Part shown: positions 71-59,838 of the stretch, one piece after another
Layout of the letters: each line of letters opens with the position of its first letter
Position numbering within the stretch: position 1 is the stretch's first letter
Origin: Bacteroidales bacterium
GTDB taxonomy: Bacteria > Bacteroidota > Bacteroidia > Bacteroidales > ML635J-15
Assembly: GCA_963676165.1 (NCBI GenBank)
Contig: OY781043.1
Location: forward strand, 294,364 to 358,363
DNA length: 64,000 nucleotides
Direction of reading: 5' to 3'
Program-made: the position numbers and the translations under genes
Notes under the pieces: generated by a model
The model's database searches: none
What the model was told of the DNA's origin: nothing
What the model saw: the letters and a program-made list of their open reading frames with translations, nothing else

Positions 71-203
71 CACACAACAATGGCTCATAGGCAATAGCGG
101 GTAAATGCTCATTTCGTAGCTTTGTAACCCGCCCGAGCATTTTCTCAATTTGAAAAGGAAGACGCACGCAAACCGCTACTGCCCATAGCCGAGACCGTTG
201 AAA
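71..203 (+). repeat. attC-like imperfect inverted repeat, site A
   Basis: The left arm CACACAACAATGGCTCATAGGCAATAGCGG (71-100) is imperfectly complementary to the right arm CCGCTACTGCCCATAGCCGAGACCGTTGAAA (173-203). GTTGAAA lies 26 nt before the ATG at 223. Confidence 0.5.
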
Positions 204-222
204 CCAAGAAAAATTCTATAAT

Positions 223-1323
223 ATGAAACAACTAATTGGGATCCTAATTATTCTCAGCTTTATAAGTTGTAAACAACAGACAGAGTGTTCTTATACAATA
301 CCTGTTGATAAAAATGACGGATTGAAAGTTTCTATGCTGGAAGAACACAATCTGGACAGAAAAACTTTTGAAAAAGTCAATAAAGATATTTGTAATGGAG
401 TTTACGGTAATTTGCATAGTGTTCTGGTTATCCACGAAAATGAACTTGTAATCGAACAATATTATAATGGCTGGGATGCGAATCAGATTCATTTTTTAGC
501 ATCCACAACCAAAAGTTTCAGTGCGATAATGATAGGTATAGCAATAGAACAAGGGAAGATTAAAGATGAAAATGAAAAAATGCTTAATTTCTTTCCAGAC
601 TATTATTCTCAATCACATGACACACTTAAAGAAAAAATAACAATTAAGCATCTATTGACTAATACATCTGGATTTGAATGGGACGAAGTTTCATTACCTG
701 TAGATGACCCTGATAATATGGGTTATGAAATGGATGAAGTTGACGATTTGTTTAAAGCTTCAATTGAGTTGCCTATGGATACTATGCCAGGACTTAAATA
801 TTCTTATAGTGGACCGAACAATATCATCATAGGAGAAATAATTAAAGCATCAACAGGGCAAAATGTGGCTGAATTTACTGAAGTAAATCTTTTTAAGCCA
901 CTTGGAATAAGTGATTATCAATGGTATTCAAAAAATGGAATTTATGATGTAGGAGGTGGACTAAAACTAAAATCAAGAGACATTGCGAAATACGGATTGC
1001 TACATTTGAATAAAGGGAAATGGAATGACAAACAAATTGTTTCGTCAGAATGGATGGACAAAATCTTTGAACCATACATTGAAATAAAACATCCTTTATA
1101 TAGTTGCTGCCAATGGCAAATGGTGAAAACGGAATACGGATTTAATTCTTGGTTTATTCCCGGTAATGGTGGACAAATTATAAATGTGGTACCTGACTTA
1201 GATTTGGTAATTGTAATAAATGCGGACAATAGAAAGATTCCAAAAGAAAAGCGAAAACCTTTGGAGTTTTTAATTAAAGATTTGACTAAAATACATCCGA
1301 AAATTAGAAACAACAATACCTGA
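223..1323 (+). CDS. Serine hydrolase, beta-lactamase/transpeptidase-like family, probable lipoprotein
   Basis: 366-aa ORF with a signal peptide plus Cys (ILSFISC). It has the SxxK motif STTKSF and a YSGPNN region typical of class C beta-lactamase-like hydrolases. Confidence 0.75.
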   Translation: MKQLIGILIILSFISCKQQTECSYTIPVDKNDGLKVSMLEEHNLDRKTFEKVNKDICNGVYGNLHSVLVIHENELVIEQYYNGWDANQIHFLASTTKSFSAIMIGIAIEQGKIKDENEKMLNFFPDYYSQSHDTLKEKITIKHLLTNTSGFEWDEVSLPVDDPDNMGYEMDEVDDLFKASIELPMDTMPGLKYSYSGPNNIIIGEIIKASTGQNVAEFTEVNLFKPLGISDYQWYSKNGIYDVGGGLKLKSRDIAKYGLLHLNKGKWNDKQIVSSEWMDKIFEPYIEIKHPLYSCCQWQMVKTEYGFNSWFIPGNGGQIINVVPDLDLVIVINADNRKIPKEKRKPLEFLIKDLTKIHPKIRNNNT

Positions 1324-1373
1324 CACGCGGTATACTTAATTGATGGGTGCCGTGCGTATTCGAGCCGTTAGCG
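1310..1373 (+). repeat. attC-like imperfect inverted repeat, site B (short form)
   Basis: ACAACAATACCTGACACGCGGTATAC overlaps the TGA at 1321-1323. The right arm is GCCGTGCGTATT-CGAGCC-GTTAGCG. AATAC/GTATT and CACGCGG/CCGTGCG pair, leaving CGAGCC unpaired. Confidence 0.55.
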
Positions 1374-1411
1374 GCAAGTTTGGAAGGCAATTGTAATAAA
1401 AAATAAGAATA

Positions 1412-2656
1412 ATGGGGAAAGTTATCATATTTATATTGTCAATTTTGAGCTTTTTGAATTTATCAGCTCAAAATAAAATAATAGGTTTTAAACCGGAGAT
1501 TGAACCATATATCAATTTCATCAAAGAACAACAAATTAGTCCAATAACTTACTTACTAGAAAAGTATAAAACCTATGATGTGATTGTATTTGGAGAGCGA
1601 GATCATAGAGATATAACGCAATATTATTTTTTGGAAAAACTGATAAATTCAGAAGATTTTTACAAACAGGTAAACATTATTTATACCGAGGTTGGATCTT
1701 CCAATTACAATGACACCCTTAATAAGATACTTCAGAATGATTTCTTAAGTGAAGCTGAAGTTGATCAAAAGCTTATAGAAATATATAGAGAAATCTCATA
1801 TCAAGCATTCTGGGATAAAAACAATTTTCTATATCTATGGAAAACAATTTATAAATTCAATCTATCACATCCAAATTATCCTATTACAATTAAAATGACT
1901 TCTCATCCATTTAATTGGCACGAGATATTAGATACGACCATTTGCAGAGTCAAAACACAAGAAGTTGAAGTCAATTATGATAAATCAATGGCTGAATACT
2001 TCCTGGAAAGTTTTGATGAAAACCAAAACAATAAAAGGAATAAAGCCTTTGTTATCATGAATTATCCTCATAGTTTACGAAAATGGACTTCAGATAAAGA
2101 AGTAACTTATTCCGATATGTTTGGTGCTTATGTCGAAAAAGTACTTGAAGGAAGAGTGTGTTACGTGATAGTAAATCCGTATCGAATTAATAGTTTACAG
2201 CCAGTTGCAAATGGAAAGTGGGATGCTGCATTCAAATATTGTGATTACAAAAATATTGGCTTTGATTTCAACAGTTCACCTTTTGGTAAAGATACGTTTG
2301 ATGTTTGGTCCGCTAATGGAATCCTGAGTTTTGAGAATCTCTATGATGGAATTATTTATGTTAGCCCAACATCACAATGTAAAAATATTATAGGAATTCC
2401 TGGCTTTATAGACAGGAAATTTGGAAAAGAATATTTGAGACGCATAAAATTACGTATGTATATTTATACAGGAAAAGAATATAAGACTAAGATTAAATGG
2501 GAAAGAGAGTCTTGCAATACGGTTAGAGTCAGAACGGTACAAGATGATAATGAATTTATGTATGGCGAAGATAAATCTAAATATTTTGATTCTATTGTAA
2601 ATAAGTGGTTAATATTTGAACAAAAACCAGCTAATAATAATGGCAATGGCCAATAG
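1412..2656 (+). CDS. Hypothetical secreted protein
   Basis: 414-aa ORF with an N-terminal signal peptide (FLNLSAQ). The motif VFGERDHRD is faintly reminiscent of the ChaN/erythromycin-esterase/Tiki superfamily. No firm family assignment. Confidence 0.55.
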   Translation: MGKVIIFILSILSFLNLSAQNKIIGFKPEIEPYINFIKEQQISPITYLLEKYKTYDVIVFGERDHRDITQYYFLEKLINSEDFYKQVNIIYTEVGSSNYNDTLNKILQNDFLSEAEVDQKLIEIYREISYQAFWDKNNFLYLWKTIYKFNLSHPNYPITIKMTSHPFNWHEILDTTICRVKTQEVEVNYDKSMAEYFLESFDENQNNKRNKAFVIMNYPHSLRKWTSDKEVTYSDMFGAYVEKVLEGRVCYVIVNPYRINSLQPVANGKWDAAFKYCDYKNIGFDFNSSPFGKDTFDVWSANGILSFENLYDGIIYVSPTSQCKNIIGIPGFIDRKFGKEYLRRIKLRMYIYTGKEYKTKIKWERESCNTVRVRTVQDDNEFMYGEDKSKYFDSIVNKWLIFEQKPANNNGNGQ

Positions 2657-2695
2657 AGTGTTAGAAGGAAAGATAAGCTTGGCTCCTTGTTGAAA
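2633..2695 (+). repeat. Weak attC-like repeat, site C
   Basis: AATAATAATGGCAATGGCCAATAG overlaps the stop at 2654-2656. The right side is AAGCTTGGCTCCTTGTTGAAA, with the same GTTGAAA core as site A. Arm complementarity is poor. Confidence 0.3.
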
Positions 2696-2750
2696 GGTCG
2701 CCAAATTTTAAAATCTTAATTTGGAGTGTAAAACTCCTAAAAGAGCCATT

Positions 2751-2800
2751 TGCAAATTAGCAAAGAAGATTTGATGAATGATCTGATTGAAAGTGAATAA
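2751..2800 (+). repeat. 50-bp exact copy of the 3' end of the TPR gene (matches 5929-5978)
   Basis: TGCAAATTAGCAAAGAAGATTTGATGAATGATCTGATTGAAAGTGAATAA occurs at both places. GTATCAAA follows both copies, after an extra 14 bp at the right copy. Confidence 0.9.
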
Positions 2801-3014
2801 GTATCAAATGTTAGAGTTTTGAGTGAATGTCTCAGGAAATATTATTGCTAATTCAAAGCGAAGACAGCAATCCAATATTGTTGCGCGGTTACAATATGAA
2901 GTTTGGTTCTTTCGAGCTAAATCTGAGCAATTACCTGGGCTTGACTTATGAATTCTAAGCCAAATTGTCTGCTTGTCGTGTGAGGATGATAGTTTTATGG
3001 TATAATGCTTCATT

Positions 3015-3160
3015 TTATCGAAATAAATTTGTACTTTTCGAAAAGAAACAAGCAAACTCGTTTATAAATGCTTACAAACAATTACAAATGCTTATTTCCG
3101 GATGGTAATCGATGGCTATTAAGTAGTTGTGAGAAGGGTGTGGTTATAAACGAGTTGTAA
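3015..3160 (+). repeat. Conserved ~150-bp non-coding element, copy A (hairpin CTCGTTTATAA...TTATAAACGAG ending GTTGTAA)
   Basis: It aligns by eye with 51813-51965. Shared parts are the leader TTATCGAAA..TTTCGA.AAGAAACAAGCA, 11-12 bp terminal inverted repeats, two internal AAATGCTTA(C) direct repeats, and a right end resembling the attC-like GTT core. Confidence 0.6.
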
Positions 3161-3204
3161 AACATTTGTCAGCCCATCTGCTAGTTATTGATAATTGAAA
3201 TATT

Positions 3205-3849
3205 ATGAGACTAAAACTTAATGGAAAAAAATATAGATATCGTCAGGAGTATTATAAGATTGAAGATGAACTGAAAGTAAAATTACCTTCTTATTCCATA
3301 AGTTATTCTGGCAAGGGTTTTTATAACGGTAAATGGCATCCATGTATTTTTCATTTCATAGATTCTTCAGGAAAAATGAAAATATTTATTTCTCCAGGAG
3401 GGGTATTTAAAGAAGGGATGTCTGACCTTGGCAAAGTGGATTCTCAGGGATTTGTAGATAAAATTGAGATTAAAGGTTTTAGGCGATTCCTTATTTTATT
3501 CTATGATTTTCTATTTCAAAAGAAACTTCAAATTTTAGGCATTATTGATAGAGCCAGCTTGATTAGGAAAAACTTAAGGTATATTTCCATTGCATTAATT
3601 GGTTCAATAATTTACTACCTGATTAATCACTTTTTGGATGGGTTCTTACAAGACTTGATAAATAAAAGTAACCTTGTTCAGTCTATAATAGTATTTCTCA
3701 GCTTATCAAGTATAGTTAATATATTCCACCCTTTTACTTTCCGTAAAGAGTTAAAGATTGAAGAAGTCGATGAACTGATTACAAAAAAGATACAGAAAGC
3801 TGAAAAAGAAGCAAAACGTAAGGAGGCAAATAAAAAATATTATCGATAA
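3205..3849 (+). CDS. Hypothetical membrane protein
   Basis: 214-aa ORF with hydrophobic segments (ISIALIGSIIYYLINHF, IIVFLSLSSIV) and a Lys-rich tail. Its stop lies 2 nt before the next ATG. Confidence 0.5.
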   Translation: MRLKLNGKKYRYRQEYYKIEDELKVKLPSYSISYSGKGFYNGKWHPCIFHFIDSSGKMKIFISPGGVFKEGMSDLGKVDSQGFVDKIEIKGFRRFLILFYDFLFQKKLQILGIIDRASLIRKNLRYISIALIGSIIYYLINHFLDGFLQDLINKSNLVQSIIVFLSLSSIVNIFHPFTFRKELKIEEVDELITKKIQKAEKEAKRKEANKKYYR

Positions 3850-3851
3850 TA

Positions 3852-4367
3852 ATGGAGAATGCGATAAAAAATAGAATACCGATTCATGTGGACTTAGAGC
3901 CAAATCGCGATGAAGTTTTTACAGGGATTTGTATAAAGGAAAATCATGAAGTCTTCATTTTTATTTGCTTCAATGAGGAGACAAAGGAATATGATGGATA
4001 CGCCATTTTGAGAAGTCAAGAAATAGAGCAGTATCGATATTGGGATAATGAGGAGCTAAGTGAGATTAAGACTGATAACCACATAGATTTCCTAAATAGA
4101 TTACCGCTGGATAAAATGAATTCATTCCATGAATGTTTAGTTGCATTAAGAGAAAAGGAATTGATTGCCATCTTTACATCAGACGATAATGATTCTTATT
4201 ATGTAGGAAGGATTAATAACCTATCTAATAGTAAGGTAACATTAAAGTTGCTGAGTGAATCTTCAGAGTGGCTGGATGAAAAGAAAATTGATATTGACAA
4301 TATTACGTACATTGGTTTTGATACCAGCTATGAGAAAGAGTTGATTAAAAACGTTTTACAACAATAA
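3852..4367 (+). CDS. Hypothetical cytoplasmic protein (probably co-transcribed with 3205-3849)
   Basis: 171-aa ORF, tightly coupled to the upstream ORF. Its stop codon overlaps the attC-like left core ACAACAATAA. Confidence 0.5.
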   Translation: MENAIKNRIPIHVDLEPNRDEVFTGICIKENHEVFIFICFNEETKEYDGYAILRSQEIEQYRYWDNEELSEIKTDNHIDFLNRLPLDKMNSFHECLVALREKELIAIFTSDDNDSYYVGRINNLSNSKVTLKLLSESSEWLDEKKIDIDNITYIGFDTSYEKELIKNVLQQ

Positions 4368-4486
4368 ATATACGTAATGCGGGGCGATTTTCTAAATTTG
4401 AACTTTAAAGCATTTAATAAACAACTTAGCGGTTTGATAGTGAAGTGCCTTGAAATCCCGCACTACGCATATTCGAGCCGTTATGG
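4358..4486 (+). repeat. attC-like imperfect inverted repeat, site D
   Basis: The left arm ACAAC-AATAAATATACGTAATGCGGGG pairs with the right arm CCCGCACTACGCATATT-CGAGCC-GTTATGG. It has the central motif CGGTTTGATAG. GTT lies 18 nt before the ATG at 4498. Confidence 0.6.
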
Positions 4487-4497
4487 GCATTTGAAAA

Positions 4498-4950
4498 ATG
4501 AGATATTTAATACTTACAATAAGTCTAATATTGAATTTGGGTTTGTTTGCTCAGATAAATGATTCTACCCATTCTTTTGAACTTGACTCAAATGGGATTA
4601 GAATTTATCATTCTGCGGATAAAATGCCTGAAATGTCAATATCTCAAGCTGAATTTATGAGCATATTAAGTTCAAAATTGAATTGGCCAGAGGTTGACAC
4701 AAACTGTTGGTTTGACAAAGTTTGTTTTGGAATAATAGTTTATGCAGATGGAAGTATTAAAACAAATTCATTGAGAATAGTTGGATCAATATGCAATGAT
4801 GATGAAAGAATAGATAAATTGAAAAAGCAATTAAGAACGAATTTAGATGAGATATTTAGTGATTTACCTAAATGGGTGTCAGGAGAAATAAATAATAAGA
4901 AAGTAGCAGTTATGTTAACAATACCTATTCATGTAAATCTTGAGTTATAA
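4498..4950 (+). CDS. Secreted protein with a TonB-C-terminal-like domain
   Basis: 150-aa ORF with a signal peptide (LGLFAQ). The C-terminal KWVSGEINNKKVAVMLTIPIHV resembles the TonB_C motif (W.PG..nGk.V.v...lPi.F). Confidence 0.5.
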   Translation: MRYLILTISLILNLGLFAQINDSTHSFELDSNGIRIYHSADKMPEMSISQAEFMSILSSKLNWPEVDTNCWFDKVCFGIIVYADGSIKTNSLRIVGSICNDDERIDKLKKQLRTNLDEIFSDLPKWVSGEINNKKVAVMLTIPIHVNLEL

Positions 4951-5093
4951 AGAAAAACGCAATTGTTTCAATCACAACAGTCCTCATGATGCTTTATCTA
5001 ATGAAAAATGTCTACTATAACACTGTTTTAAAAAGGAGAAGCCTACATACAAACACAAAAAAAACAACGCGAAAAGTACAAAACATGAACGGT

Positions 5094-5172
5094 ATAACAA
5101 TTAATAAAAGGCTTAGGCTTGATAGATTCTTGCTTCAAAATGCGCAACGTTTTGTACAGCCATCCGTTGGCA
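5094..5172 (+). repeat. Degenerate attC-like repeat, site E
   Basis: ATAACAAT...GGCTTGATAG...CCATCCGTTGGCA keeps the left core, central motif and right core of the family. The arms pair poorly. Confidence 0.3.
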
Positions 5173-5978: not shown

Positions 5979-5991
5979 ATATTAAATATTA

Positions 5992-12633: not shown

Positions 12634-12640
12634 AGAAGTT

Positions 12641-12691
12641 CCGCTTTTGGACATGATTTTTGCAAAAAAAGCAAAAACTCACGCCAAAAGC
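12641..12691. repeat. REP-like palindromic intergenic repeat, copy 1
   Basis: CCGCTTTTGGACATGATTTTTGCAAAAAAAGCAAAAACTCACGCCAAAAGC. The same family occurs at 38732-38786 (inverted) and 50919-50983. Confidence 0.8.
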
Positions 12692-13246
12692 TTGACATGC
12701 ATATGATGCATTTCGGCGTTGTCACCATAACATCTACGGTGATATTACTAGTAATTTTTTGCGCCAGCTTAGTACTTTCTGACAATTGTAAAACTACAGA
12801 TAAATATTTGAGATTACCCAAAATGGGAGGTTGCCTTCTATTCTTAGTGGGGAAACAGCAAGGCTTTATTTTTGAAAATACCTTTGTACATGACCTAAAT
12901 AATCTATTTCAAGTATTGAATTATAACAAATTGCTCAAGCCCTGTAGGGGCTTAATTTTTGTAACCCCGGACAAGAATTTATTCGTAGTCCGGGGATGAC
13001 AAACATAGGTGAATGTGTTTTTGGCGTATATCTTTGCAATAACCGAGGGACGAAGGTATGCAAAGATTATGACAAAAAGTTTTGTCATGTAATAACGGGA
13101 AATACTTTAAATTAAACATCAGTTTTCATCCTGAAAACTAAAATTAATTCCATTGATTCAATATCAGGATAGAAAGCGGAGTTAATAAGCCCTATACATA
13201 TTGGTTTATCCAACACCAATGGTGTTTCACGCCAAAAGCTACAGCT

Positions 13247-41883: not shown

Positions 41884-41963
41884 CTTATTTAAGAAAATGG
41901 CAAAATATTTAATTAGTGAAATCCTTAATTAAAAAAATCGGGTATTTCTTAATTAAGGAGTTT
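41884..41963 (+). repeat. ~80-bp AT-rich direct repeat R1 (partner 45275-45356)
   Basis: CTTATTTAAGAAAATGGCAAAATATTTAATTAGTGAAATCCTTAATTAAAAAAATCGGGTATTTCTTAATTAAGGAGTTT. By eye it is about three-quarters identical to R2. Each copy is itself two ~40-bp half units. Confidence 0.75.
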
Positions 41964-42050
41964 TGTATTTAATGTTTATTGTAGGAAACGTGTTTTAGAG
42001 TAAGCATCTCCGCGATAACGTTGCAATGTTGATAGGCTATTGAAAGTCTA

Positions 42051-45274: not shown

Positions 45275-45356
45275 CTTTATTTAAGAAAATAGCAAATAAA
45301 TTAATTAGCGAAGTTGTTTATTTAAGAAAAATGCGAATTTATTAATTAAGGGGTTT
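45275..45356 (+). repeat. ~80-bp AT-rich direct repeat R2 (partner 41884-41963)
   Basis: CTTTATTTAAGAAAATAGCAAATAAATTAATTAGCGAAGTTGTTTATTTAAGAAAAATGCGAATTTATTAATTAAGGGGTTT. It lies immediately upstream of fic on that gene's strand. Confidence 0.75.
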
Positions 45357-45381
45357 CTTGTTTAAAGCATTCTGATTTGCT

Positions 45382-50918: not shown

Positions 50919-50983
50919 GGGGTGCCGCTTTTGGACATGATTTTTGCACTAAAAAGCAAAAATTCATGCCAAAAGCGGCACCC
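50919..50983. repeat. REP-like palindromic intergenic repeat, copy 3 (most complete)
   Basis: GGGGTGCCGCTTTTGGACATGATTTTTGCACTAAAAAGCAAAAATTCATGCCAAAAGCGGCACCC. Confidence 0.85.
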
Positions 50984-51614: not shown

Positions 51615-51812
51615 GATTTTTTATTTCAAAAGTACCGGTGGGAGGCATTTTATGCTAGTGTTTTTCGGTGAAAGCTGTGGAAATCTCGGTAAAACAGCGA
51701 AATAGCACTGCAATACTCAAAAGCAAAAAATTGACTCTTGAAAACCTGTTTTCTGACAGCTTATCAAACAATAATCATAAAGGTTTGACAAGTTTTCCAT
51801 GTTTTTTGTGAT

Positions 51813-51965
51813 TTATCGAAAATATCTCTACCTTTCGAGAAGAAACAAGCACAAGCACGCTCGTTTATAAATGATTACATTTATTTATAAATACTTACCA
51901 TGCAGTTGATATTGATTGATTGTTAGGTGTTTGTGAAAGGAGTTGTGGATATAAACGAGTTATGC
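51813..51965 (+). repeat. Conserved ~150-bp non-coding element, copy B (hairpin CTCGTTTATAA...ATATAAACGAG ending GTTATGC)
   Basis: It is homologous by eye to 3015-3160. Its right end GTTATGC is identical to the right core of attC-like site F. It sits at the left border of array 2. Confidence 0.6.
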
Positions 51966-52064
51966 ACAAGTAAAGAGAATTACTGCAAAAAGGTATGAAT
52001 TGTTAAAATTGAATTGATTTCGGCTGTAATGAAAAAAAGCGTAAATTTGTAAAAAGAGATAATC

Positions 52065-52286
52065 ATGGATATCCAAACAAAGAAATATCATTTGATAGAG
52101 TGGATTACGCAAATAAGGGATTCGCAGCTTCTCGACAAGTTGATGCGGCTTGCTACAGAAAATGATTGGTGGGAAGAAATAAGTCAGTCAGAGCGAGATG
52201 CCATAGAAGAAGGTTTGCGAGATTTGTCAAAAGGGAATTTACATGATCATTCAGAAGTGAAGAAGCTTTATGAAAGATATCACTAG
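52065..52286 (+). CDS. Putative antitoxin (addiction-module component)
   Basis: 73-aa acidic ORF that overlaps the following RelE/ParE toxin ORF by 17 nt. Confidence 0.6.
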   Translation: MDIQTKKYHLIEWITQIRDSQLLDKLMRLATENDWWEEISQSERDAIEEGLRDLSKGNLHDHSEVKKLYERYH

Positions 52287-52569
52287 GGTTGTATGGTCAG
52301 ATCGGGCTGTCTCTGATTTGAAAAATATCATTAATTACCTTGAAGACAATTGGACGCAAAAAGAGATAAATAAATTTACGCTAAAACTTGAAAAACAAAT
52401 TTCAATAATAAAGGAGCATCCGAAAGCTTTTGTTGCTACTAATCACAATAATGTTAGAAGAGCAGTAATGACAAAACAAGTAACACTTTATTATGATTTA
52501 GAAGAATCGACAATTAGAATCGTAACATTATTTGATACACGTCAAAGTCCGACCGAATTGCAATTCTAA
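52270..52569 (+). CDS. Type II toxin, RelE/ParE family
   Basis: 99-aa ORF. W..RA..DL..I..Y and the C-terminal IRIVTLFDTRQSP are typical of ParE/RelE-like toxins. Confidence 0.7.
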   Translation: MKDITRVVWSDRAVSDLKNIINYLEDNWTQKEINKFTLKLEKQISIIKEHPKAFVATNHNNVRRAVMTKQVTLYYDLEESTIRIVTLFDTRQSPTELQF

Positions 52570-52612
52570 AACATTTTGCAGATAATAAAAAACTTTTAGA
52601 AAGAATACCAGT

Positions 52613-52694
52613 GCATAACAATAAATATATATCAGCTGCGCGAGTTTGATACGCAATAGTGGCGCAGCCGCTACATATTTGCATACCGTTATGC
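52613..52694 (+). repeat. attC-like imperfect inverted repeat, site F
   Basis: GCATAAC (52613-52619) and GTTATGC (52688-52694) are perfect complements. The inner pairs are AAATAT/ATATTT and CTGCGC/GCGCAG. GCATACC is unpaired next to the right core. The central motif is GAGTTTGATAC. Confidence 0.65.
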
Positions 52695-52773
52695 CCTATG
52701 TAGGCTTGACAGACGAAAAAACAGAACTCAAACTATTTACAATTTAAACTTTAGTTTAAATCGGATTATTAAA

Positions 52774-53146
52774 ATGATTCATGAAATTGATATAAAGCCT
52801 ATTCATAAGAGGTTATTATTTAGCTTAGGTCATTTGGATATATTTTTCAATAGTTATTATTGCTTTAATAGCTTATGAGAAAGGACTTTTTGAAGCCATG
52901 ATTTTTTGCATTATTTGGCTAACACTACTCTTTGTGAAAATATTTTATGATTCTCGGTATTTTGTATCAAGAATATCATTTGATGAAAATATAACGGAGC
53001 ATCTACTAATGGAAGCGAAGGAAAATAGAACAAAAATTTGTGTTCTTCATGCTTCGAAAATGGGGGACCCAATTTATACAAAGCTTGGTTTTCAAAAATA
53101 TGGAGAAATTGAAACCTATAGAATATTGAAAGAAAAGAATAACTAA
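52774..53146 (+). pseudogene. Disrupted cassette ORF ending in a GNAT acetyltransferase C-terminal remnant
   Basis: A 33-codon ORF from 52774 stops, and reading resumes at 52898 in another frame. Only the last ~45 aa (ITEHLLMEAKENRTKICVLHASKMGDPIYTKLGFQKYGE) look GNAT-like. The N-terminal GNAT motifs are absent. Confidence 0.5.
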
Positions 53147-53262
53147 AGCTGACACTGTATATACAAGGTAGGCGGAATGGTAGTAAATTCAACGGTTGTA
53201 GCCCGCTTAAAATTATCTCGGTTTGATACATTTGAAGCCCGCAATCGCCTACATTTGCATAC
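53139..53262 (+). repeat. attC-like repeat, site G (left and central part; the right core is displaced to 54348-54360 by the intron)
   Basis: ATAAC overlaps the TAA stop. The sequence aligns along its length with site H (ACACTGTATAT..GTAGTAAATTCAA..TCGGTTTGATA..CGCAATCGC..CATTTG). It is broken after GCATAC. Confidence 0.65.
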
Positions 53263-54347
53263 GTGTGCCAAGAAGCAGTACATCGGCATTAAACAGTACT
53301 GCATGCTTTAATTGAGATGGTGGAATCCGTCAGTTGACGGATGATCCCCCCGAAGTCGATTTCCAGGAAAGGGCTTCAACCCACCTAAAGATGCTGTGTT
53401 GAAGAAGCATGGTATTGAGCGTTTAGGAAAATACAGTCCATGAGACTGTCAGGAATGTGTACAGGAGATGAACGAAAGAGAACCATTGATGAAGAGTCGA
53501 GAAAGTGGAATCCTCAGTCAAAATCCGTATAAGTATGAATGCGGTTATAAGTGCAACGGTTACCTGTTTATTGGTTGCACGATTGGCGTCATTTAGATGG
53601 CATGAACTGTACACAGGCTCAGTTAAGGAACTTGGGAATCTGATCGGGAATGTAAAGGGAAGCACAATAAAATCAATCTAGAGGCGAAATACCAAAAACC
53701 CGAATCAGAGACGGACTAACCCGTAGTAGTGATGAATTCCTGTAATGGGAATAGAGCAAAGGGGTTAGGTTATACAGAGTCATAACATTTAACAACTTGT
53801 AAGAGGATGAATTTATGGAATGAGACAAAATCAGTACCGATAAGTCGCCAAATGATTTGGCAGGCTTATAAGAAAGAGAAAGCCAACAAAGGAAGTGCAG
53901 GTGTCGATTCAGTAAGCATGGAGATATTCGATGCAAACAGAAGTAAACACTTGTATAAACTTTGGAATCGAATGATATCGGGGAGTTATTTCCCTCCACT
54001 AGTCAAAGAAGTTGAGATTCTTAAAAAAGACGGCAAAGTCCACAAGTTAGGTATTCTAACAATAGCAAATTTCGTGGATACGAACTGTCAAGAGTATTTT
54101 ATCTGCTACGATGTCGACTGGTACGCTGGGCACGAAAACGGTATAAACGCTACAGAATAAGTTTGACAAGAGTCTGTAAATTGTTATACAGGGTTAGGAA
54201 GCAATATCCTTATCTGTTTTATCACTGGCAATTAGGATTTTCAAATTAAAAGTAGCAGATTTGTATAACAAGAGCCGTATGACGGGAGACTATCACGTAC
54301 GGTTCTGTGAGAGGCTTAGGGTGAAACTCCCTTTACCTATTCGACAC
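53263..54347 (+). mobile_element. Group II intron, ORF-deleted derivative (bacterial class C-like)
   Basis: The 5' end is GTGTG. The RT N-terminus (53807-54070) reads SAGVDSVSMEIF...YFPPLVKEVEILKKDGKVHKLGI. The IEP C-terminal remnant is RWARKRYKRYR...YPYLFYHWQLGFSN* (about 54125-54250). Domain V is GAGCCGTATGACGGGAGACTATCACGTACGGTTC (54272-54305). A domain VI-like stem follows. The proposed 3' end ...CGACAC is inferred by alignment of the flanks to site H. Confidence 0.75.
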
Positions 54348-54395
54348 TTGTCCGTTGTAGTTAATGCAAAAGAGAGTTTCGTTCAAAATGAAACT

Positions 54396-54977
54396 ATGAA
54401 AAGATTAGTAGAAAATATTGAGACTTATATTAGCTTAAATCAGGAAGAATTGTCTTTGCTTGAAAAATTTTTGACAAAAAAAACTTATAATAAAAAGACT
54501 ACCTTTTTTGAAGAAGGAAAAATTGCTAATGAAATATATTTTGTTTCTAAAGGTTGTGTTCGCCTGTTTTATAATGTAGACGGTAACGATAAAACTGCCT
54601 TCTTTTATACAGAAGGACAATTTATATGTGCAGGAGAAAGCTATACTTTCAATACACCGGCCATAGAAAACTATCAAGCAATTGAAAATACTGACTTGAT
54701 AATATTCACAAAGTCAGACATTGAAAAGTTAACGCTACTGTTACCAAGAATAGAGGTAATTGCACGAGTTGCTGTGGAGAATGAATTAATAACTAGTCAA
54801 AAAGTGATTGCTTCATTTGTGACAAAATCGCCGGAAGAACGTTACCTTGACTTGTTAAATACTCAAAAAGAACTTTTCCAAAGAGTTCCACAACAGTATA
54901 TTGCATCGTTTCTTGGAGTTTCGCCGGAAACACTAAGTAGAATCAAAACAAGAGTTTACAAAAAAGAACGTTCTTGA
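54396..54977 (+). CDS. Crp/Fnr-family transcriptional regulator
   Basis: It has a cNMP-binding fold (FFEEGKIANEIYFVSKGCVRLFY) and a C-terminal HTH (QQYIASFLGVSPETLSRIK). The listed ORF start at 54261 lies inside the intron. Confidence 0.8.
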   Translation: MKRLVENIETYISLNQEELSLLEKFLTKKTYNKKTTFFEEGKIANEIYFVSKGCVRLFYNVDGNDKTAFFYTEGQFICAGESYTFNTPAIENYQAIENTDLIIFTKSDIEKLTLLLPRIEVIARVAVENELITSQKVIASFVTKSPEERYLDLLNTQKELFQRVPQQYIASFLGVSPETLSRIKTRVYKKERS

Positions 54978-55032
54978 TGATGGTCAAGAGAAAGTAGAAT
55001 TATATGCTATAACTTTGTTTTTAAAATAAATA

Positions 55033-55893
55033 ATGATGAAAAAAGTATTAGTAGCAGGAGCAACGGGATATTTAGGTCAGTACTTAGTTAAAGAGCTAAA
55101 GAAAAGAGGATTTTGGGTAAGAGTTTTAATTCGAAAAGAAGCTCAAAAGGAAAAATTTGAAACAGTTGACGATTTTTTCATTGGAGAAGTAACTAAACCT
55201 GTAAGTATTAAGGGGGTAACGAAAGATATTAATTGGGTCTTTTCAACGATTGGTATTACTCGACAAAAAGATGGAATGACATATATGGATGTTGATTATC
55301 AAGGCAATTCCAACTTATTAAAAGAAGCATTAATAGATAAAGTTGAATCATTTGAATATATATCAGCAATAAACGGAGAGAAACTTAGACATCTCAAAAT
55401 TTTTGAAGCTAAAGAGAAATTTGTAGATGAATTGAAAGATTCTGGAATTAATTATTGTGTTTTACGTCCAAATGGATTCTTTTCCGATATGAAAGACTTT
55501 CTAAATATGGCAAAAGCTGGTCGAGTATTTTTATTTGGAGCAGGAGTGTTGAAATTGAATCCAATTCACGGAGAGGATTTGGCAAAAGTATGCGTTGATA
55601 AAATTATTGAAGGTGTTAAAGAGGAGACGGCAGGAGGGATTGACATTTTAACTCAAAATGAATTAGCCGAATTAGCACTAAAAGCGTGGAATAAACCAAT
55701 TAAAATAAGTCATCTTCCAGATTGGACAAGGAGACTAACAATTTGGTTATTACGAACATTTACATCATCTAGAACTTATGGACCGATTGAGTTCTTTTTA
55801 ACTGCGATGGCATTTGATAATATTGCAAACCAATATGGAACGAATCGTCTTGAAGATTTTTTTAAATTAGAAGTGAAAAGAATGAAGGAATAA
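55033..55893 (+). CDS. NAD(P)H-binding atypical SDR / NmrA-like oxidoreductase
   Basis: VLVAGATGYLGQYLVKEL is a Rossmann motif. 286 aa. Confidence 0.75.
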   Translation: MMKKVLVAGATGYLGQYLVKELKKRGFWVRVLIRKEAQKEKFETVDDFFIGEVTKPVSIKGVTKDINWVFSTIGITRQKDGMTYMDVDYQGNSNLLKEALIDKVESFEYISAINGEKLRHLKIFEAKEKFVDELKDSGINYCVLRPNGFFSDMKDFLNMAKAGRVFLFGAGVLKLNPIHGEDLAKVCVDKIIEGVKEETAGGIDILTQNELAELALKAWNKPIKISHLPDWTRRLTIWLLRTFTSSRTYGPIEFFLTAMAFDNIANQYGTNRLEDFFKLEVKRMKE

Positions 55894-55936
55894 GCACTAG
55901 CTACAACAAAGAATTAAGGTAAAATCCAAGTAAAAA

Positions 55937-56336
55937 TTACGAAGGAGTCAAAGACGATTTTAAATTTGGATCATATGGATTTCCTAAATTTGCGATTGCA
56001 AAAGCTTGTTTTAAGAGTTTGTTTGTTACAACAATCAGGGCAAGTTTTTTTGATTTTCCCTTATCAACAATTCGGTTATAGATAGCCTTGCAATGAAGAT
56101 TATTTTTGCATGCTGTAAAGCTTACATAAAGAGGTAGTTTCTCATCAGAGCATTCCCTCTTTTGGAGATTCCAGAGTGACCTTTGACGTTAGATCCTGAC
56201 AAGTATTCAACAGGGGAGAGTCCAAAAACGCTGATAATTGTTTTGCATTATCAAAAGTCTCAAATGCATTTGTACAAACAATAAGAAAAAGAGCTGTCTT
56301 TTTACCGATGCCAGGTATTGATGTGATATTAGTAAG
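55937..56336 (-). pseudogene. IS110-family transposase, C-terminal remnant with frameshifts
   Basis: The minus strand reads LTNITSIPGIGKKTALFLIV...QLSAFL / GLSPVEYLSGSNVKGHSGISKRGNALMRNYLFM / AKNNLHCKAIYNRIVDKGKSKKLALIVVTNKLLKQAFAI in three frames. The N-terminal DEDD domain is missing. Confidence 0.7.
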
Positions 56337-56530
56337 GTCTTTTCTCTCTTTTTTGTTTGAAATTTGGTGTTTTTAAGATACCTTTAAGGCAAATAAACCA
56401 GAAAATAACGAAACCCATGATAAAACAGGAATTTTTAATCCGGGAGATAAATATTGACACTTTTTTACAAACTCCCTTATTAAAATGTAATTTTTAGATA
56501 GACTGCTGTTACCTGTTATTAAAAAAGACT

Positions 56531-57610
56531 ATGAGAATGAACTATGAATTCAAATATCTTATTGCAGGAATAATTATATTGATTTCATTAAATCAATCAT
56601 CTGGACAAGAAATTAAGATTTCTGAAAATCTTGTTTTGTACAAATTGTCAGAATGTTGTTATGAGCATACTCAAAAGGGTAATAACGGATTGGTTTACAT
56701 AAATAATGGAGAAGCTGTTATTGTTTCAACTCCCGATTCAGATACCGAAACTCAAAATTTAATAGATTGGGTTCGAAATGAACAACACGCTAAAATTGTT
56801 GCTTACGTAATTGACAGATGGCATCCCGATGCAATGCAGGGTTTAGATGTCGTTAAAAAAAATGACATAAAAAGCTATGCTTATGAATTAACCCGACAGA
56901 TAGCCAAAGAAAAAGGGTTGCCTGTTCCTGAATTTGGGTTTAATCCTAAAAAAGAGATAAAAGTTGGAAATCAAAAGATAATTTGTCATTTTCTGGGAGA
57001 GTCACATACACCGGATGGGATTGTTGTTTGGATTCCAAATGAACAAATACTCTTTGGCGGAAATGAAATTCGGAATTATAACGGTTGGGTTGGAAATATT
57101 GGCGATGCAAACCTTGAAAAATGGTCAGAAACAGCAAAAAACATTAAAAGAGAATATGGCTCTGCTAAAGTTGTAGTCCCGGGACACGGGGAATATGGTG
57201 GCTCTGAATTAATTGATTACACGATTGATTTGTTCAGCCTTCCCCAAAACGAATTGTTTATTGATAGTACTGAGACTGTTGTTGCTTTTAACAAAAAAAC
57301 AGAAGATGAATTTATTGTGAAAGCTGAATTTGATTCAATTCAAGACGGGAAACGTATTTTAAAAAATGCGACTGTAATAATTCAGGATAAAACAAAATTT
57401 ATAGAGATTGAATCTCCTCAGATTAATATTTCTATGGACAACACAAAAATTGATTCTGAAATTGGAAGAGTAAAAATTTATGACAAGAAAACAGACTGTG
57501 AAGAGTTAAGAACGGATGTGAATTATAGAAAACTAATCATTTATAAATATGACGAAGACACTGTTGGATTTGTAGTAATATTGAAGGGAATAGAAAATAA
57601 CAATCGTTAA
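56531..57610 (+). CDS. Subclass B1 metallo-beta-lactamase-like secreted protein with non-canonical metal ligands and a C-terminal extension
   Basis: GESHTPDGIVVWIPNEQILFGGNEI and VVPGHGEYG align with the B1 motifs GHT.DN.VVW.P....LFGGC..K and PGHG. The HxHxD position reads RWHPD, and the Cys of GGC is Asn. About 125 extra C-terminal residues follow. Confidence 0.6.
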   Translation: MRMNYEFKYLIAGIIILISLNQSSGQEIKISENLVLYKLSECCYEHTQKGNNGLVYINNGEAVIVSTPDSDTETQNLIDWVRNEQHAKIVAYVIDRWHPDAMQGLDVVKKNDIKSYAYELTRQIAKEKGLPVPEFGFNPKKEIKVGNQKIICHFLGESHTPDGIVVWIPNEQILFGGNEIRNYNGWVGNIGDANLEKWSETAKNIKREYGSAKVVVPGHGEYGGSELIDYTIDLFSLPQNELFIDSTETVVAFNKKTEDEFIVKAEFDSIQDGKRILKNATVIIQDKTKFIEIESPQINISMDNTKIDSEIGRVKIYDKKTDCEELRTDVNYRKLIIYKYDEDTVGFVVILKGIENNNR

Positions 57611-57735
57611 CACTGTATATGTAAAATAGATGGAATTGTAGTAAATTCAAGGAGCTTAGCTCGCTTTGAAGTTGTTTCGGTTTGATAGTTTTGTAGTCCG
57701 TAATCGCTCCATTTGTATATACTTGACCGTTACAA
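57597..57735 (+). repeat. attC-like imperfect inverted repeat, site H
   Basis: ATAACAAT overlaps the stop codon region. The arms are GTATATGTAAAATAGATGGAATTGTAG and TCCGTAATCGCTCCATTTGTATATAC. The central motif is TCGGTTTGATAG. The right end is TTGACC-GTTACAA, 21 nt before the ATG at 57750. Confidence 0.65.
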
Positions 57736-57749
57736 GTAACTCTAAAACC

Positions 57750-58328
57750 ATGAAAAGAAAGTTACACATATTTATTTGGTTCGTCGCATTGCTTTGTGCT
57801 TCTTGTTCTATTAATGGATCATTTCAGGGTTTGTTTAGCTATTATAACAAAACAAAAAATGAGTCTGAGATAACATTCAAGCGTATTAATTCGGTGGAAG
57901 ATTGTTTAAGCTTACATTCAGATTCTGCATCTGTTTTAATAGCCAATGGACTTCAAATAAGAAACTGCTTAAGTGAAATTCCGAGTGCTGTTGTATATAT
58001 TTGGACTCCTAGATGCAAAGGAAAATACTGTTATTCCCTCAATGTTTTGCAAGAAATCTGTCGTCAAAAAGGGTGCGAATTGTTTATCGTTGCTGAGTAT
58101 TTTGACAAGGTTCACATGAGTAAGTATTATCAAATATCGCATCCAATAATTGGTATTGATGTTAAGTACTATAGAACTAATTTTACATCAAAATATCTGT
58201 CGAAATTTATACTGGATTTAACAAATGGCATGTATGATTATGATGTGAAAAATGACAATTATTGTAACTTTTTAAATTTCAAAAATGGTGAGTTTAAACG
58301 GGCTTTTATGTCAATCGAAGAACTTTAA
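57750..58328 (+). CDS. Hypothetical lipoprotein (possibly thioredoxin-fold)
   Basis: MKRKLHIFIWFVALLCASC is a lipoprotein signal. VVYIWTPRCKGKYC loosely resembles a Trx-like W..C motif. The listed start at 57666 lies inside the repeat. Confidence 0.5.
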   Translation: MKRKLHIFIWFVALLCASCSINGSFQGLFSYYNKTKNESEITFKRINSVEDCLSLHSDSASVLIANGLQIRNCLSEIPSAVVYIWTPRCKGKYCYSLNVLQEICRQKGCELFIVAEYFDKVHMSKYYQISHPIIGIDVKYYRTNFTSKYLSKFILDLTNGMYDYDVKNDNYCNFLNFKNGEFKRAFMSIEEL

Positions 58329-58625: not shown

Positions 58626-59838
58626 CTAAGTACATGACAAAAATTTTTCAATGTGAATATCATCTTGACAAACAGGATTTAACAAAACTGAAGCAATATA
58701 TTTCAAACCATATTTAAACAAGCTCATTGCTTTTCTTCCATGCCTTTAGGTCTTGACTTTGTTCACATTGTAATGCAAAAATATTCCAACTTTATAACAC
58801 CAGACAAAAGCAATCATTACCAGTAAAATAAGGTTTTGTAAACGTGGAGTTTCACTGAGGTGAGTTTTTTCAATGTCAAATCCACTCGATTTCATAGCTT
58901 TAAAACAAGTTTCAATTTGCCAGCGTTTTTCATAAAAGAACTTAGCCTGATCTGGTTTGTTGAACGAAGCTATAATTAAGAAATCGTTCTTGCCATCCTT
59001 ACCTTTTATTTTACAACCAGAAATATAGCAAAGCTGATCACCAATTTTGACAAGTTTTGAATAACGCTTGAATTGACCAACATCAAGGGAGTTAAATAAC
59101 CAATTAGCTTTTACTTTCTTTGATTTGTACGGGAGGTATAACTTGAAGTTATTACGAATACGAATATAATACCGAATTTGATGCTCGTTTAGAAACTCAA
59201 GCCAGCGTTCCCCAACAAATTCACGATCAGCTACAAGGCAGTCAATACATTCTTGTCCAAACAGATTAATAAAACGCTTTACAAGATCTATCCGCTCTGA
59301 CGAATTTGAGTTACCTCTTTTATTAAGTAGTGAGAACATTACCGGGAAGGACAAACCTTTATATGCCACACCAAGCATGAAAATATTGATATTAGTTTTT
59401 CCAAACTTCCAGTTTGTTCGATCAATTGTAAGTACAAGTTTTTCTTTCTTTGGAAGTAAGTTGAATATCAAGCGAGCAACCAAATCAGGACATAGATTAT
59501 AGAGACCAATAAAGCGTTGAATCCGCCTATGACTACTACTTGCTTTAGCCCTGGAATTAAAAGCCGAAGACAGCTTCTCAAAATTAACTGTCTGAACTTT
59601 ACACAGGGCTACAATAAACAGTGACAGAAATTTAATTCTTGCCAAGTTCAATTTTCCTTGGAATTGTTCTTTTAAAATTGAAACTAATTCAGTACTTTTA
59701 TCTTCTACCTTGGTATTCTTATTCATTACAAAAGACTTAGGAATCCTTTGTAAGATACTGGATATCAAGGTATTTACCAAATTTTATAGCAGTTATTTTA
59801 CTGATTTTCAGCGAATTAATTTTTTGTCATGTACTAAG
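58626..59838 (-). mobile_element. IS4-family insertion sequence
   Basis: The 18-bp terminal IRs CTAAGTACATGACAAAAA (58626-58643) and TTTTTGTCATGTACTAAG (59821-59838) have one mismatch and enclose one DDE transposase. No unambiguous TSD was seen. Confidence 0.8.
58746..59780 (-). CDS. IS4-family DDE transposase
   Basis: LTIDRTNW, LVADREF and YEKRWQIETCFKAMKSSGF give the DDE triad with the Y-2-R-3-E-6-K signature. Confidence 0.85.
   Translation of the reverse strand: MVNTLISSILQRIPKSFVMNKNTKVEDKSTELVSILKEQFQGKLNLARIKFLSLFIVALCKVQTVNFEKLSSAFNSRAKASSSHRRIQRFIGLYNLCPDLVARLIFNLLPKKEKLVLTIDRTNWKFGKTNINIFMLGVAYKGLSFPVMFSLLNKRGNSNSSERIDLVKRFINLFGQECIDCLVADREFVGERWLEFLNEHQIRYYIRIRNNFKLYLPYKSKKVKANWLFNSLDVGQFKRYSKLVKIGDQLCYISGCKIKGKDGKNDFLIIASFNKPDQAKFFYEKRWQIETCFKAMKSSGFDIEKTHLSETPRLQNLILLVMIAFVWCYKVGIFLHYNVNKVKT

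Follow-up and report, generated by a model that had tools for sequence, protein, structure and literature searches.

A probable orphan array of integron-like gene cassettes in a Bacteroidales genome

Genes and features of the locus

The window, a 64-kb stretch of the Bacteroidales contig OY781043.1, carries at 51.8-58.3 kb a series of co-directional units in the order promoter/attI-like unit, ParE toxin pair, decayed cassette, Crp regulator with an SDR gene, B1-type metallo-beta-lactamase (MBL) homologue and lipoprotein. All genes lie on the + strand and GC is 0.31-0.40 over 52-58 kb. A cassette consists of one gene, or a few genes in the same direction, with an attC-like site after them. Five such sites lie on the + strand from 51.8 to 57.7 kb, and three of these are strong matches to our covariance model R1. 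The features are:

51809-51961, + strand: P unit (site E0), a promoter-like box followed by an attI-like site (arms CTCGTTTATAA / ATATAAACGAG), ending at the crossover GTT (51959-51961)
51960-52688, + strand: cassette 1, antitoxin-like ORF and ParE-family toxin, ending in attC F
52065-52286, + strand: antitoxin-like small ORF, partner of the ParE toxin
52270-52569, + strand: ParE-family toxin (Pfam PF05016, E 3.6e-8)
52613-52694, + strand: attC F, short form of 82 nt, R'' GCATAAC, R' GTTATGC
52689-53146, + strand: decayed coding part of cassette 2; the sole ORF left is 82 aa (52898-53146)
53147-53262, + strand: 5' part of attC G (R'', 5' arm, loop, 3' arm), by homology and model R1
53263-54345, + strand: degenerate group II intron (GTGTG...GAC) in attC G (Rfam RF01999, 83 bits; RF00029, 62 bits)
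53807-54160, within the intron: truncated reverse transcriptase (RT) ORF (TIGR04416, N-terminal 74 residues only)
54346-54360, + strand: 3' part of attC G, spacer ACTTGTCC and R' GTTGTAG (54354-54360), aligning with H and with the site of related locus L087
54355-55907, + strand: cassette 3, Crp/Fnr-type regulator (54375-54977) and NmrA/SDR protein (55033-55893), both by Pfam, with its own R'' at 55901-55907
55910-56500, - strand: IS110-family remnant, a frameshifted C-terminal third of the transposase (three-frame translations)
56508-56514, + strand: R' of the split site (GTTACCT), where the MBL cassette begins
56509-57729, + strand: cassette 4, B1-type metallo-beta-lactamase homologue ("long type"), gene at 56531-57610
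57605-57735, + strand: attC H, decayed, R'' CGTTAAC, R' GTTACAA at 57729-57735
57730-58328, + strand: cassette 5, lipoprotein-like ORF (57750-58328), no attC after it
58626-59838, - strand: IS4-type insertion sequence at the right array edge (DDE_Tnp_1, 21-nt terminal inverted repeats)
72-5172, + strand: array 1, same system, cut off by the left end of the window; attC at 72-203, 4356-4486 and 5048-5172, P unit at 3013-3156
near 1315-1375, + strand: short decayed site of array 1

A previous sequence-only reading had described the toxin-antitoxin (TA) pair, the Crp/Fnr and SDR pair, the MBL-like protein and the lipoprotein as units of a cassette array, and these assignments hold, with profile matches for ParE (PF05016), the Crp/Fnr and SDR pair (Pfam) and the MBL homologue (NF041269). 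Its proposal of a broken ORF with a GNAT-type end in cassette 2 stands as far as decay is concerned, with stops in all three frames upstream of the 82-aa ORF, but the GNAT-like C-terminus is faint (Acetyltransf_10, E 0.15 only). Likewise, the proposed "resistance-type" fold is real as a B1-type family assignment: the MBL homologue scores 531 bits against the equivalog cut-off of 350 for NF041269 and has homologues in many Bacteroidota at 55-83% identity. The zinc ligands of B1 metallo-beta-lactamases are H116, H118 and H196, and D120, C221 and H263. The family instead has motifs RWHPD and GGN in place of HxHxD and GGC, invariant in six members (the window protein and five homologues). "Resistance-type" is therefore a family name only and beta-lactamase activity is putative, because R and N occupy what we take, from the B1 motifs and not from a structure, to be positions H116 and C221.

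Structure of the attC-like sites

Sites of this family are usually 130-134 nt long (128-134 nt across 17 sites) and share one plan: R'' (..YAAC), a 2-nt spacer, a stem of ~18 bp, a variable loop, a 4-6-nt spacer ending in CC, and R' (GTTRNNN). RNAalifold recovered from the 17 sites a 16-pair stem with covariation in 14 of the 16 pairs (covariation score 0.71 versus 0.15 in shuffles), and pairing was intact in 94% of cells versus 64% in shuffled alignments and 23-37% with slid partners, with 0 of 500 shuffles reaching 94%. AAC and GTT are near-invariant across the 17 sites and their pairs are kept in 98% of cases. Top-strand A.C mismatches, which are G.T pairs on the bottom strand, outnumber the reverse kind by 35 to 6 and cluster at two fixed stem positions (in 12 and 14 of 17 sites). 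The stem is thus kept by compensatory changes and is complete on the bottom strand only, a bias that stems from the fixed G.T positions together with variable bulges; the canonical extrahelical T/G bases are not evident in these sites, and none of them matched an Rfam attC family.

Model R1 found six sites in the window (72-203, 4356-4486, 5048-5172, 52613-52694, 53147-53273 and 57605-57735), all on the + strand and no other, so that both arrays carry repeats of one family, as the earlier reading had held. It matched twice in 1.24 Mb of unrelated loci, one of these matches being a real single cassette, and 22 times at cassette ends in the related loci L081-L100; the outcome in which matches fall mostly outside cassettes was not seen, every position found being a cassette position. 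The motif GGTTTGATA occurs exactly at 4431, 53220 and 57679, confirming the shared central motif that had been noticed, but its count alone is within chance, whereas the whole-site model is beyond it.

Individual sites vary in preservation. Site F lies outside the R1 training set, yet scores 46.8 bits (E 3.9e-10), folds better as bottom strand (-17.9 versus -13.8 kcal/mol for the top strand; bottom-strand z = -3.0), has the complementary GCATAAC/GTTATGC cores first reported for it, and has a homologue after a cassette in related locus L099. Site G scores 75 bits despite its insert and is 87% identical to the L087 site. Its proposed alignment with H holds (75-79% identity) with the bounds of G refined to 53147-53262 plus 54346-54360. 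Site H belongs to the training set, and its 97-bit score is therefore not independent; its arms pair poorly and it has ceased to fold (z = -0.15). The split site was also correctly recognized, though its R'' is at 55901-55907 and its R' (GTTACCT) at 56508-56514, not at 56515-56521. Past 58328 there was neither an R1 match nor a stable fold.

Cassette junctions, the P unit and cassette variation

Cassettes meet at G|TT crossover junctions, and many of them bear their own matching R''/R' pair. Cassette 1 starts with GTTATGCAC, which is its R'' GTGCATAAC in reverse complement; cassette 3 starts with GTTGTAG, the reverse complement of its R'' CTACAAC; and an array 1 cassette starts with GTTGTAAAAC, the reverse complement of its R'' GTTTTACAAC. 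Overall, 13 of 20 cassette starts matched their own R'' at six or more of seven positions, versus 7 of 380 non-own pairs. Three of the six window cassettes tested lack good complementarity (two of four in the 51.8-58.3 kb array), among them cassette 2 with 4/7. Homology to the MBL loci L081, L107 and L112 starts exactly at the GTTA of R' GTTACCT.

The P unit at E0 shares homology with 3013-3156 of array 1 as far as the GTT and no further. Besides these two window copies, the pattern recurs in 19 metagenome loci, each followed by a different gene; the unit is ORF-less, ~420 bp long, and flanked on either side by G|TT junctions in at least eight different contexts. It begins TTGAAC directly after the G of the preceding attC and contains ~75 nt enclosed by a perfect 13-bp inverted repeat, with a promoter-like box upstream. 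A likeness to the site after the recombinase gene of Persicobacter, seen in its right arm, spans only ~14 nt. This head unit thus recurs elsewhere with different cassettes after it, and it would supply a putative promoter and an attI-like entry site.

Variation at the level of single cassettes, which the sequence-only reading had named as a check, is seen between near-identical genomes. Loci L103 and L104, from 97%-identical genomes, differ by one cassette, the site of which no longer folds, and four contigs with identical recombinase and left flank diverge just past a palindrome plus GTTA.

Inserted elements and decay

Excising 53263-54345 regains a 131-nt site G. The nearest solved RTs to that of the inserted intron are of class IIC, and group IIC-attC introns likewise parasitize attC sites; these insert into the bottom strand of attC, at TTGT/T in R'', in an orientation opposite to the cassettes (PMC7923331). 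The window intron instead lies on the top strand in cassette orientation, between ...GCATAC and ACTTGTCC, and an insertion of the IIC-attC type was ruled out by this + strand orientation and by the insertion point 8 nt before R'.

The IS110-family remnant covers positions 222-339 of the 343 of NF033542 (E 6e-26) and is inserted 2 nt past the R'' of the split site. In related loci L107 and L113 the MBL gene is preceded, at the same position, by an intact IS110 element that has its end in common with the window. The IS1111-attC group of IS110-family elements parasitizes attC sites, and the remnant likewise lies within an attC, 2 nt after R''. Site E0 (51809-51961), the intron in G and the IS110 remnant in the split site had been overlooked by the sequence-only reading. 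The array is decaying: an intron interrupts G and an IS110 remnant the site after it, one cassette is pseudogenized, H is degraded, and the last cassette is not closed by a site.

The recombinase of related elements

The 64-kb window lacks a tyrosine recombinase altogether, in agreement with the previous observation that none sits beside either array, and the two arrays are indeed separated by core genes (IleRS, TamB, TsaD, Era, Der and PGK). In Persicobacter pPP2, Ancylomarina and four marine contigs, sites of this family come after a ~380-aa Xer-like recombinase in the same orientation, which answers the earlier demand for a plausible enzyme. On pPP2, ~124 R1 matches extend over ~100 kb, all on the coding strand, with a co-oriented 379-aa recombinase at the 5' end of the array; in Ancylomarina the recombinase is followed by four R1 matches. 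On a plasmid of a poultry pathogen, such sites also follow tet(X), estT and blaOXA. The relatives' recombinases score 192-210 bits against TIGR02249 (cut-off 265), matching in two stretches, the first ending at model position ~180. From this adjacency we infer that the ~380-aa Xer/IntI-related recombinase may be the enzyme for these sites, acting on the window array in trans or since lost. The family is very abundant, with 60-66% identity across orders, and a housekeeping Xer-type role is therefore possible. No recombinase was present in 114 related loci, and the source genome was absent among the recombinase homologues listed (120 of ~8,000 each time).

Nature of the array

Given a window without a recombinase and relatives whose Xer-like recombinase falls below the NCBI integron-integrase cut-off, we consider that the 51.8-58.3 kb region is probably an "orphan" array, lacking a recombinase, that belongs to an integron-like cassette system widespread in Bacteroidota. 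The claim that this is a cassette array of the integron kind agrees with site structure, junctions and model specificity; the array is a Bacteroidota integron analogue with rAID-1-like architecture, and membership among classical integrons is not proven. As the relatives' recombinase is not a canonical IntI, "integron" describes a mode of working and not a proven family membership. We propose that cassettes would travel as circles, with crossover by a tyrosine recombinase on the folded bottom strand, between the G and TT of R', and that the array would be stabilized by its ParE pair.

That the array is instead the remnant of a classical integron, with a canonical IntI bearing the IntI-specific insertion elsewhere or lost and the Xer-like recombinase incidental, is unlikely in our view. 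Integrons have been reported in Bacteroidota and integrase-only "In0" elements seen in Bacteroidetes, the relatives' recombinases match TIGR02249 partially, and the R''/R' consensus, G|TT junction, bottom-strand bias and TA cassette all fit canonical attC biology; yet the adjacent recombinase is below the cut-off, matched in two stretches and co-oriented in every complete element found, no IntI was seen in the window or the 114 related loci, spacers are asymmetric (2 versus 4-6 nt), and canonical extrahelical bases are not evident. A complete integron was rejected on the grounds that the window has no intI and the relatives' recombinase is below cut-off. Still less credible is the idea that E0/P is a conserved promoter with a 5' leader RNA, or an invertible switch before accessory operons, and no recombination site. 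The inverted repeat and promoter-like box would suit such a role, as would the + strand genes, many of them defence-like, that always follow the unit under a scan pattern that detects one orientation only; against it, conservation stops exactly at GTT, the unit starts right after the preceding attC's G, downstream cassettes' R'' boxes are complementary to the bases right past GTT, and E0/P matches no Rfam family. Least plausible, and already largely refuted, is a mere run of accessory genes with ordinary structured intergenic elements (terminators, REP-like or regulatory hairpins) that have no role in mobility. Sites do lie just past stop codons as terminators would, several in the window are degraded and no recombinase is nearby, but terminator-like sites are not in excess, cassette starts are complementary to their own R'', the repeated unit has exact G|TT ends in many contexts, cassettes are swapped between near-identical genomes, and one recombinase-headed array holds ~124 sites.

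Comparison with known systems

Integrase-less arrays (CALIN, as IntegronFinder terms them) are defined by at least two nearby attC sites in one orientation with no integron integrase within ~4 kb; the array has both the number and orientation of sites and the absence of integrase within that distance, its sites being called with our own R1 and not IntegronFinder's attC model. In common with CALIN and sedentary integrons (Vibrio superintegron, VCR), it has co-directional cassettes, RYYYAAC / GTTRRRY-like hairpin sites with a G|TT crossover, structure kept by covariation, bottom-strand favour, a homogeneous site family per lineage, TA cassettes and pseudogenes, and very large arrays occur in some hosts (pPP2). 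By GC skew, the bottom strands of the sites are the leading-strand template, the same orientation relative to replication as in sedentary integrons. Unlike in classical integrons, the relatives' recombinase is co-oriented with the cassettes, carries an extra N-terminus of ~105 aa and falls below the integrase cut-off, the two spacers differ in length, strand bias comes from two fixed G.T/A.C positions and not from extrahelical bases, and some cassettes hold several genes (reaching ~3 kb here and ~6 kb in related locus L122).

The rAID-1 elements of Bacteroidota, described in 2019, have a 5' XerD-like recombinase co-oriented with an array of short, low-GC genes and conserved intergenic repeats that were called reminiscent of integrons (bioRxiv 10.1101/471110; PMC12247911). 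They are defined by a recombinase at least 44% identical to BF9343_RS08045, at least two co-directional downstream genes of GC <=41%, and orphan immunity cargo. Gene direction and GC in the window array fall within this definition, whereas it has no recombinase, and instead of T6SS immunity genes it carries a TA pair, regulators and an MBL homologue, with no immunity-family match among the window cassettes. Related elements share with rAID-1 the phylum, the 5' recombinase architecture, intergenic repeats and immunity-type genes, the Persicobacter array bearing SUFU, DUF4272 and DUF4279. The likeness is one of architecture. ORF-less promoter cassettes (PMC6557892; bioRxiv 10.1101/2023.11.21.568050) resemble the P unit as gene-less, junction-bounded units between cassettes that could drive expression; the P unit differs from them as one highly repeated unit with a putative promoter and its own distinct site, which resembles that beside the recombinase gene.

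Gene content and repeat sites of the array

The stretch at 51.8-58.3 kb (array 2) had been proposed, in a sequence-only reading, as a second cassette array of the repeat family found at 72..5172 (array 1). Its genes all lie on the + strand, ORF and domain evidence bears out the units listed in that reading, and its repeat positions stand, save that R' of the split site is GTTACCT at 56508-56514. The broken, GNAT-ended ORF is indeed degenerate and proved to be stop-riddled, with an 82-aa remnant whose GNAT-like tail is only faint. To these we add three features: a group II intron in G, an IS110 remnant and E0.

Features of array 2 (window position, strand, description)
51809-51961: E0, a promoter-like and attI-like unit (P unit)
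+ strand: 73-aa ORF overlapping a ParE-family toxin gene (PF05016, toxin)
52613-52694: attC-like repeat F
+ strand: cassette 2, a stop-riddled stretch with an 82-aa ORF at its end (GNAT-like tail, E 0.15)
53139-53262 plus 54348-54360: attC-like repeat G
53263-54345: group II intron (GTGTG...GAC; Rfam, 83 and 62 bits) inserted in G
+ strand: Crp-type regulator and NmrA/SDR protein (domain matches)
55901-55907 and 56508-56514: split attC-like site; insert, minus strand, IS110-family transposase (C-terminal third, frameshifted)
56531-57610, + strand: B1 metallo-beta-lactamase (MBL) homologue (NCBI 'subclass B1 metallo-beta-lactamase, long type', 531 bits vs cut-off 350)
57597-57735: attC-like repeat H
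+ strand: lipoprotein-like ORF (ORF call)

The complementary cores GCATAAC/GTTATGC of F are present as described, and its bottom strand folds better than in 199 of 200 shuffles. G and H do align, at 75-79% identity across about 125 nt, and the motif GGTTTGATA is common to the two arrays, with exact copies at 4431, 53220 and 57679. Removal of 53263-54345 from G restores a 131-nt site, and the reverse transcriptase of the intron retains only its N-terminal 74 model positions. At two database loci (L107 and L113), an intact IS110 lies upstream of the MBL gene at the same spot as the window remnant. Scans by fold and by covariance model (R1, below) found no attC after the lipoprotein gene.

The cargo includes a B1-type MBL homologue, though to judge from its residues its activity is doubtful. 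Where B1 enzymes show HxHxD and GGC, this family has RWHPD and GGN, invariant in six of six aligned sequences (window 56531-57610, P0014, P0025, P0054, P0075 and P0110); at the positions that we take to be zinc ligands H116 and C221, all six have other residues.

A uniform site family that folds on the bottom strand

Metagenome loci recovered by the E0 pattern also contain relatives of every site type in the window, each directly 3' of the last ORF of its unit. An alignment of 17 sites, drawn from these loci and the window, shows a remarkably constant length (128-134 nt), and RNAalifold gives a 16-pair stem with compensatory changes in 14 of the 16 pairs. Pairing was observed in 94% of cells, against 64% in column shuffles and 23-37% with slid partners, and none of 500 shuffles reached the observed values. 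On the top strand, A stands opposite C at two fixed stem positions in 12/17 and 14/17 sites, and such cells number 35 overall vs 6 of the reverse kind; this excess means that the helix is complete only on the bottom strand, via G.T pairs, a strand asymmetry as expected for a site used single-stranded. The same wobble analysis led us to reject a mirrored polarity of the sites, which the top-strand intron and the longer 3' spacer had suggested. Rfam holds no family for either the attC-like sites or the P unit.

R1, the covariance model built from this family, was run on the window with filters off and matched only 72-203, 4356-4486, 5048-5172, 52613-52694, 53147-53273 and 57605-57735, all on the + strand and all inside the two arrays; F and 5048-5172 were outside its training set. 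In array-bearing loci it gave 22 matches, at cassette ends, and across unrelated loci (1.24 Mb, mostly from Bacteroidales) it gave two, one of them a true single cassette flanked by core genes. Because R1 matches are confined to cassette positions, with two in 1.24 Mb elsewhere, the model does not fall mostly on non-cassette locations, an outcome named beforehand as one that would speak against the arrays.

The single cassette (L029, 15792-17112) comprises a 389-aa ATPase-like ORF and an 80-bit attC with core genes on both sides; the orthologue of window gene 60311-61651 is about 5 kb away. In three loci (L105, L107 and L112), the histidine kinase and CN-hydrolase genes that follow the MBL gene were considered as core genes and rejected as such: each has an R1 site behind it, and these arrays are therefore longer than apparent.

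Cassette junctions and variation between genomes

Were a cassette circle to recombine at G|TT, the bases after its start G would derive from the cassette's own site, so that the start and the R'' of one cassette should be reverse complements of each other (the end boxes of a site being R'' and R'). In 13 of 20 cassettes the start matches its own R'' at six or more of the seven positions that follow GTT, frequently as an unbroken stretch of 9-10 nt, vs 7 of 380 mismatched pairs at the same level. Such matches occur in the window between E0 and F (GTTATGCAC / GTGCATAAC), between G and the split site (GTTGTAG / CTACAAC) and in array 1 (GTTGTAAAAC / GTTTTACAAC); they are absent from the decayed cassette 2, the MBL cassette and one array-1 cassette.

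Two loci that are 97% identical (L103 and L104) carry different first cassettes beside the same core flank. Behind the swapped cassette the site has lost its fold, and the swap may therefore have been homologous rather than site-specific. MBL homologues occur in several different contexts, and homology to the window starts at the R' sequence GTTA. A genome scan with the core gene 60311-61651 returned only distant relatives (best 89% identity), without synteny.

Within array 1, a 63-nt copy of the 3' end of a TPR cassette gene (2751-2813 vs 5929-5991, 95% identical) lies upstream of the P unit and is a trace of rearrangement in that array.

A gene-less unit at the head of the array

E0 is the first element of array 2 and is homologous to 3013-3156 of array 1, the homology ending at GTT. 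The metagenome scan recovered 19 loci, in which E0 is the 3' part of an ORF-less unit of about 420 bp that begins with TTGAACTACATC, directly after the G of the preceding attC, and ends in ...TATAAACGAG|TT. The unit has a promoter-like box, invariant arms and a variable interior, and the cassettes behind it differ between loci. Gene-less promoter cassettes are known from integrons (PMC6557892; bioRxiv 10.1101/2023.11.21.568050). That the P element is instead a leader RNA or an inverton we consider a minor alternative. Two P-site matches on viral contigs were discarded, as both lay within a phage ORF.

Many of the cassette proteins behind the P unit look like anti-phage defence proteins, as read from their translations: an OLD-type ATPase accompanied by a UvrD-like helicase, restriction-modification systems, a DUF262-like protein, a reverse transcriptase and a MotA/MotB-like pair. 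One cassette (L094) holds a DUF805 RNA motif at 233-302 (Rfam RF03081, 73.5 bits), upstream of an outer-membrane-protein-like ORF.

Recombinase-headed arrays of the same family

Neither the window nor 114 related loci yielded a tyrosine recombinase. Searches by phmmer with approximate IntI1 and XerD queries found none in 1.57 Mb of loci and did detect an origin-spanning gene in Persicobacter; among the matches listed in recombinase homologue searches, none came from the source chromosome.

Comparison of the sites with annotated plasmids (blastn) led to replicons of Persicobacter, Fulvitalea, Riemerella and Myroides. Persicobacter psychrovividus pPP2 carries a co-directional array of ~100 kb with about 124 R1 matches, all on the coding strand, and at its 5' end a co-oriented 379-aa tyrosine recombinase, whose gene spans the record origin and is hence missing from the gene table. 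About 165 nt past its stop codon lies ...GATATAAACAAGTT|GTTCCCAAT, which resembles the right arm of the window P site over only ~14 nt. The array (L115, L118, L119; record ~303.4-403.5 kb) is superintegron-sized, with >100 small co-directional genes, SUFU, DUF4272, DUF4279 and TNT-toxin-related genes among them, and its end adjoins a PAAR/gp25/baseplate cluster together with IS elements.

Ancylomarina sp. YFZ004 has a recombinase of 45% identity with four R1 sites behind it, and the first cassette there starts with a match to its own R''. On four marine contigs both the recombinase and the left flank are identical, and the sequences diverge right after a perfect palindrome and GTTA. The recombinases narrowly pass NF040815 ('site-specific tyrosine recombinase/integron integrase'; 222-230 bits, cut-off 220) and score below the cut-off of the integron-integrase model TIGR02249 (192-210 bits vs 265), to which they align in two stretches, of which the first stops at model position ~180; their N-terminus is extended by ~105 aa. 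At E below 1e-40, the family counts at least 7,968 members. The rAID-1 clusters of gut Bacteroidales, which are recombinase-headed immunity gene clusters, have the same architecture as these arrays (bioRxiv 10.1101/471110; PMC12247911).

A resistance cassette array on a plasmid

On the Riemerella anatipestifer plasmid NZ_CP072192.1 (L116), R1 sites stand directly after tet(X), estT, blaOXA and a DUF4197 gene, among others, and also flank erm(F)/ere(D) (2292-2424, 12644-12774, 13768-13901, 15343-15537, 16251-16383, 17259-17393 and 18484-18615). The estT cassette begins with GTTAGCGGG, a match to its own R'' CCCGCTAAC. No recombinase is listed on this plasmid, and the sites and genes together amount to a resistance cassette array; the sites behind tet(X), estT and blaOXA bear on the mobility of these resistance genes.

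A probable integron-like system in Bacteroidota

The stretch at 51.8-58.3 kb is best explained as a decaying orphan array that belongs to an integron-like system found in Bacteroidota. The system would work as integrons do, and the array, with sites called by our own model, fits the definition of a CALIN (an integron cassette array without an integrase, as IntegronFinder defines it); the results do not support placing it in the classical IntI integron family. Integron surveys have found almost no integrons in Bacteroidetes, and the site family ranges across Bacteroidales, Marinilabiliales, Cytophagales and Flavobacteriales. Standard tools may overlook a large cassette reservoir.

Tentatively, and with slightly less than an even chance of being right as a whole, we propose that Bacteroidota have their own widespread integron analogue. 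A Xer-like recombinase of ~380 aa, encoded in the same direction as the cassettes and without the IntI insertion, would recombine folded bottom-strand hairpins of ~131 nt at G|TT, and mobile promoter plus attI-like P units would seed recombinase-less arrays at several chromosomal loci, to be serviced in trans. The system would store defence, immunity and resistance genes and, on plasmids of Flavobacteriales, would supply the cassette setting in which tet(X), estT and blaOXA lie, and rAID-1 of gut Bacteroides would be one of its branches. The site model offers a concrete, testable mechanism for these 'integron-like' rAID-1 clusters.

Other observations in the window

At the right end of array 1, a RhuM-family gene is split by an IS1182-type element (DUF772 and DDE; 5992-6330, 6468-8141 and 8469-8840). 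An ORF of 794 aa (8930-11314) encodes two complete tandem phosphoglycerate kinase (PGK) domains (1188-nt repeat, ~72% identity); the third PGK gene, next in line (11335-12633), is more divergent. A 40-nt intergenic repeat (12638-12677 and 50922-50961, 85% identical), with no relation to the attC family, lies downstream of unrelated core genes, and AT-rich repeats of ~50 nt at 41885-41972 and 45277-45370 flank a region with an IS66 transposase and a Fic-domain gene.
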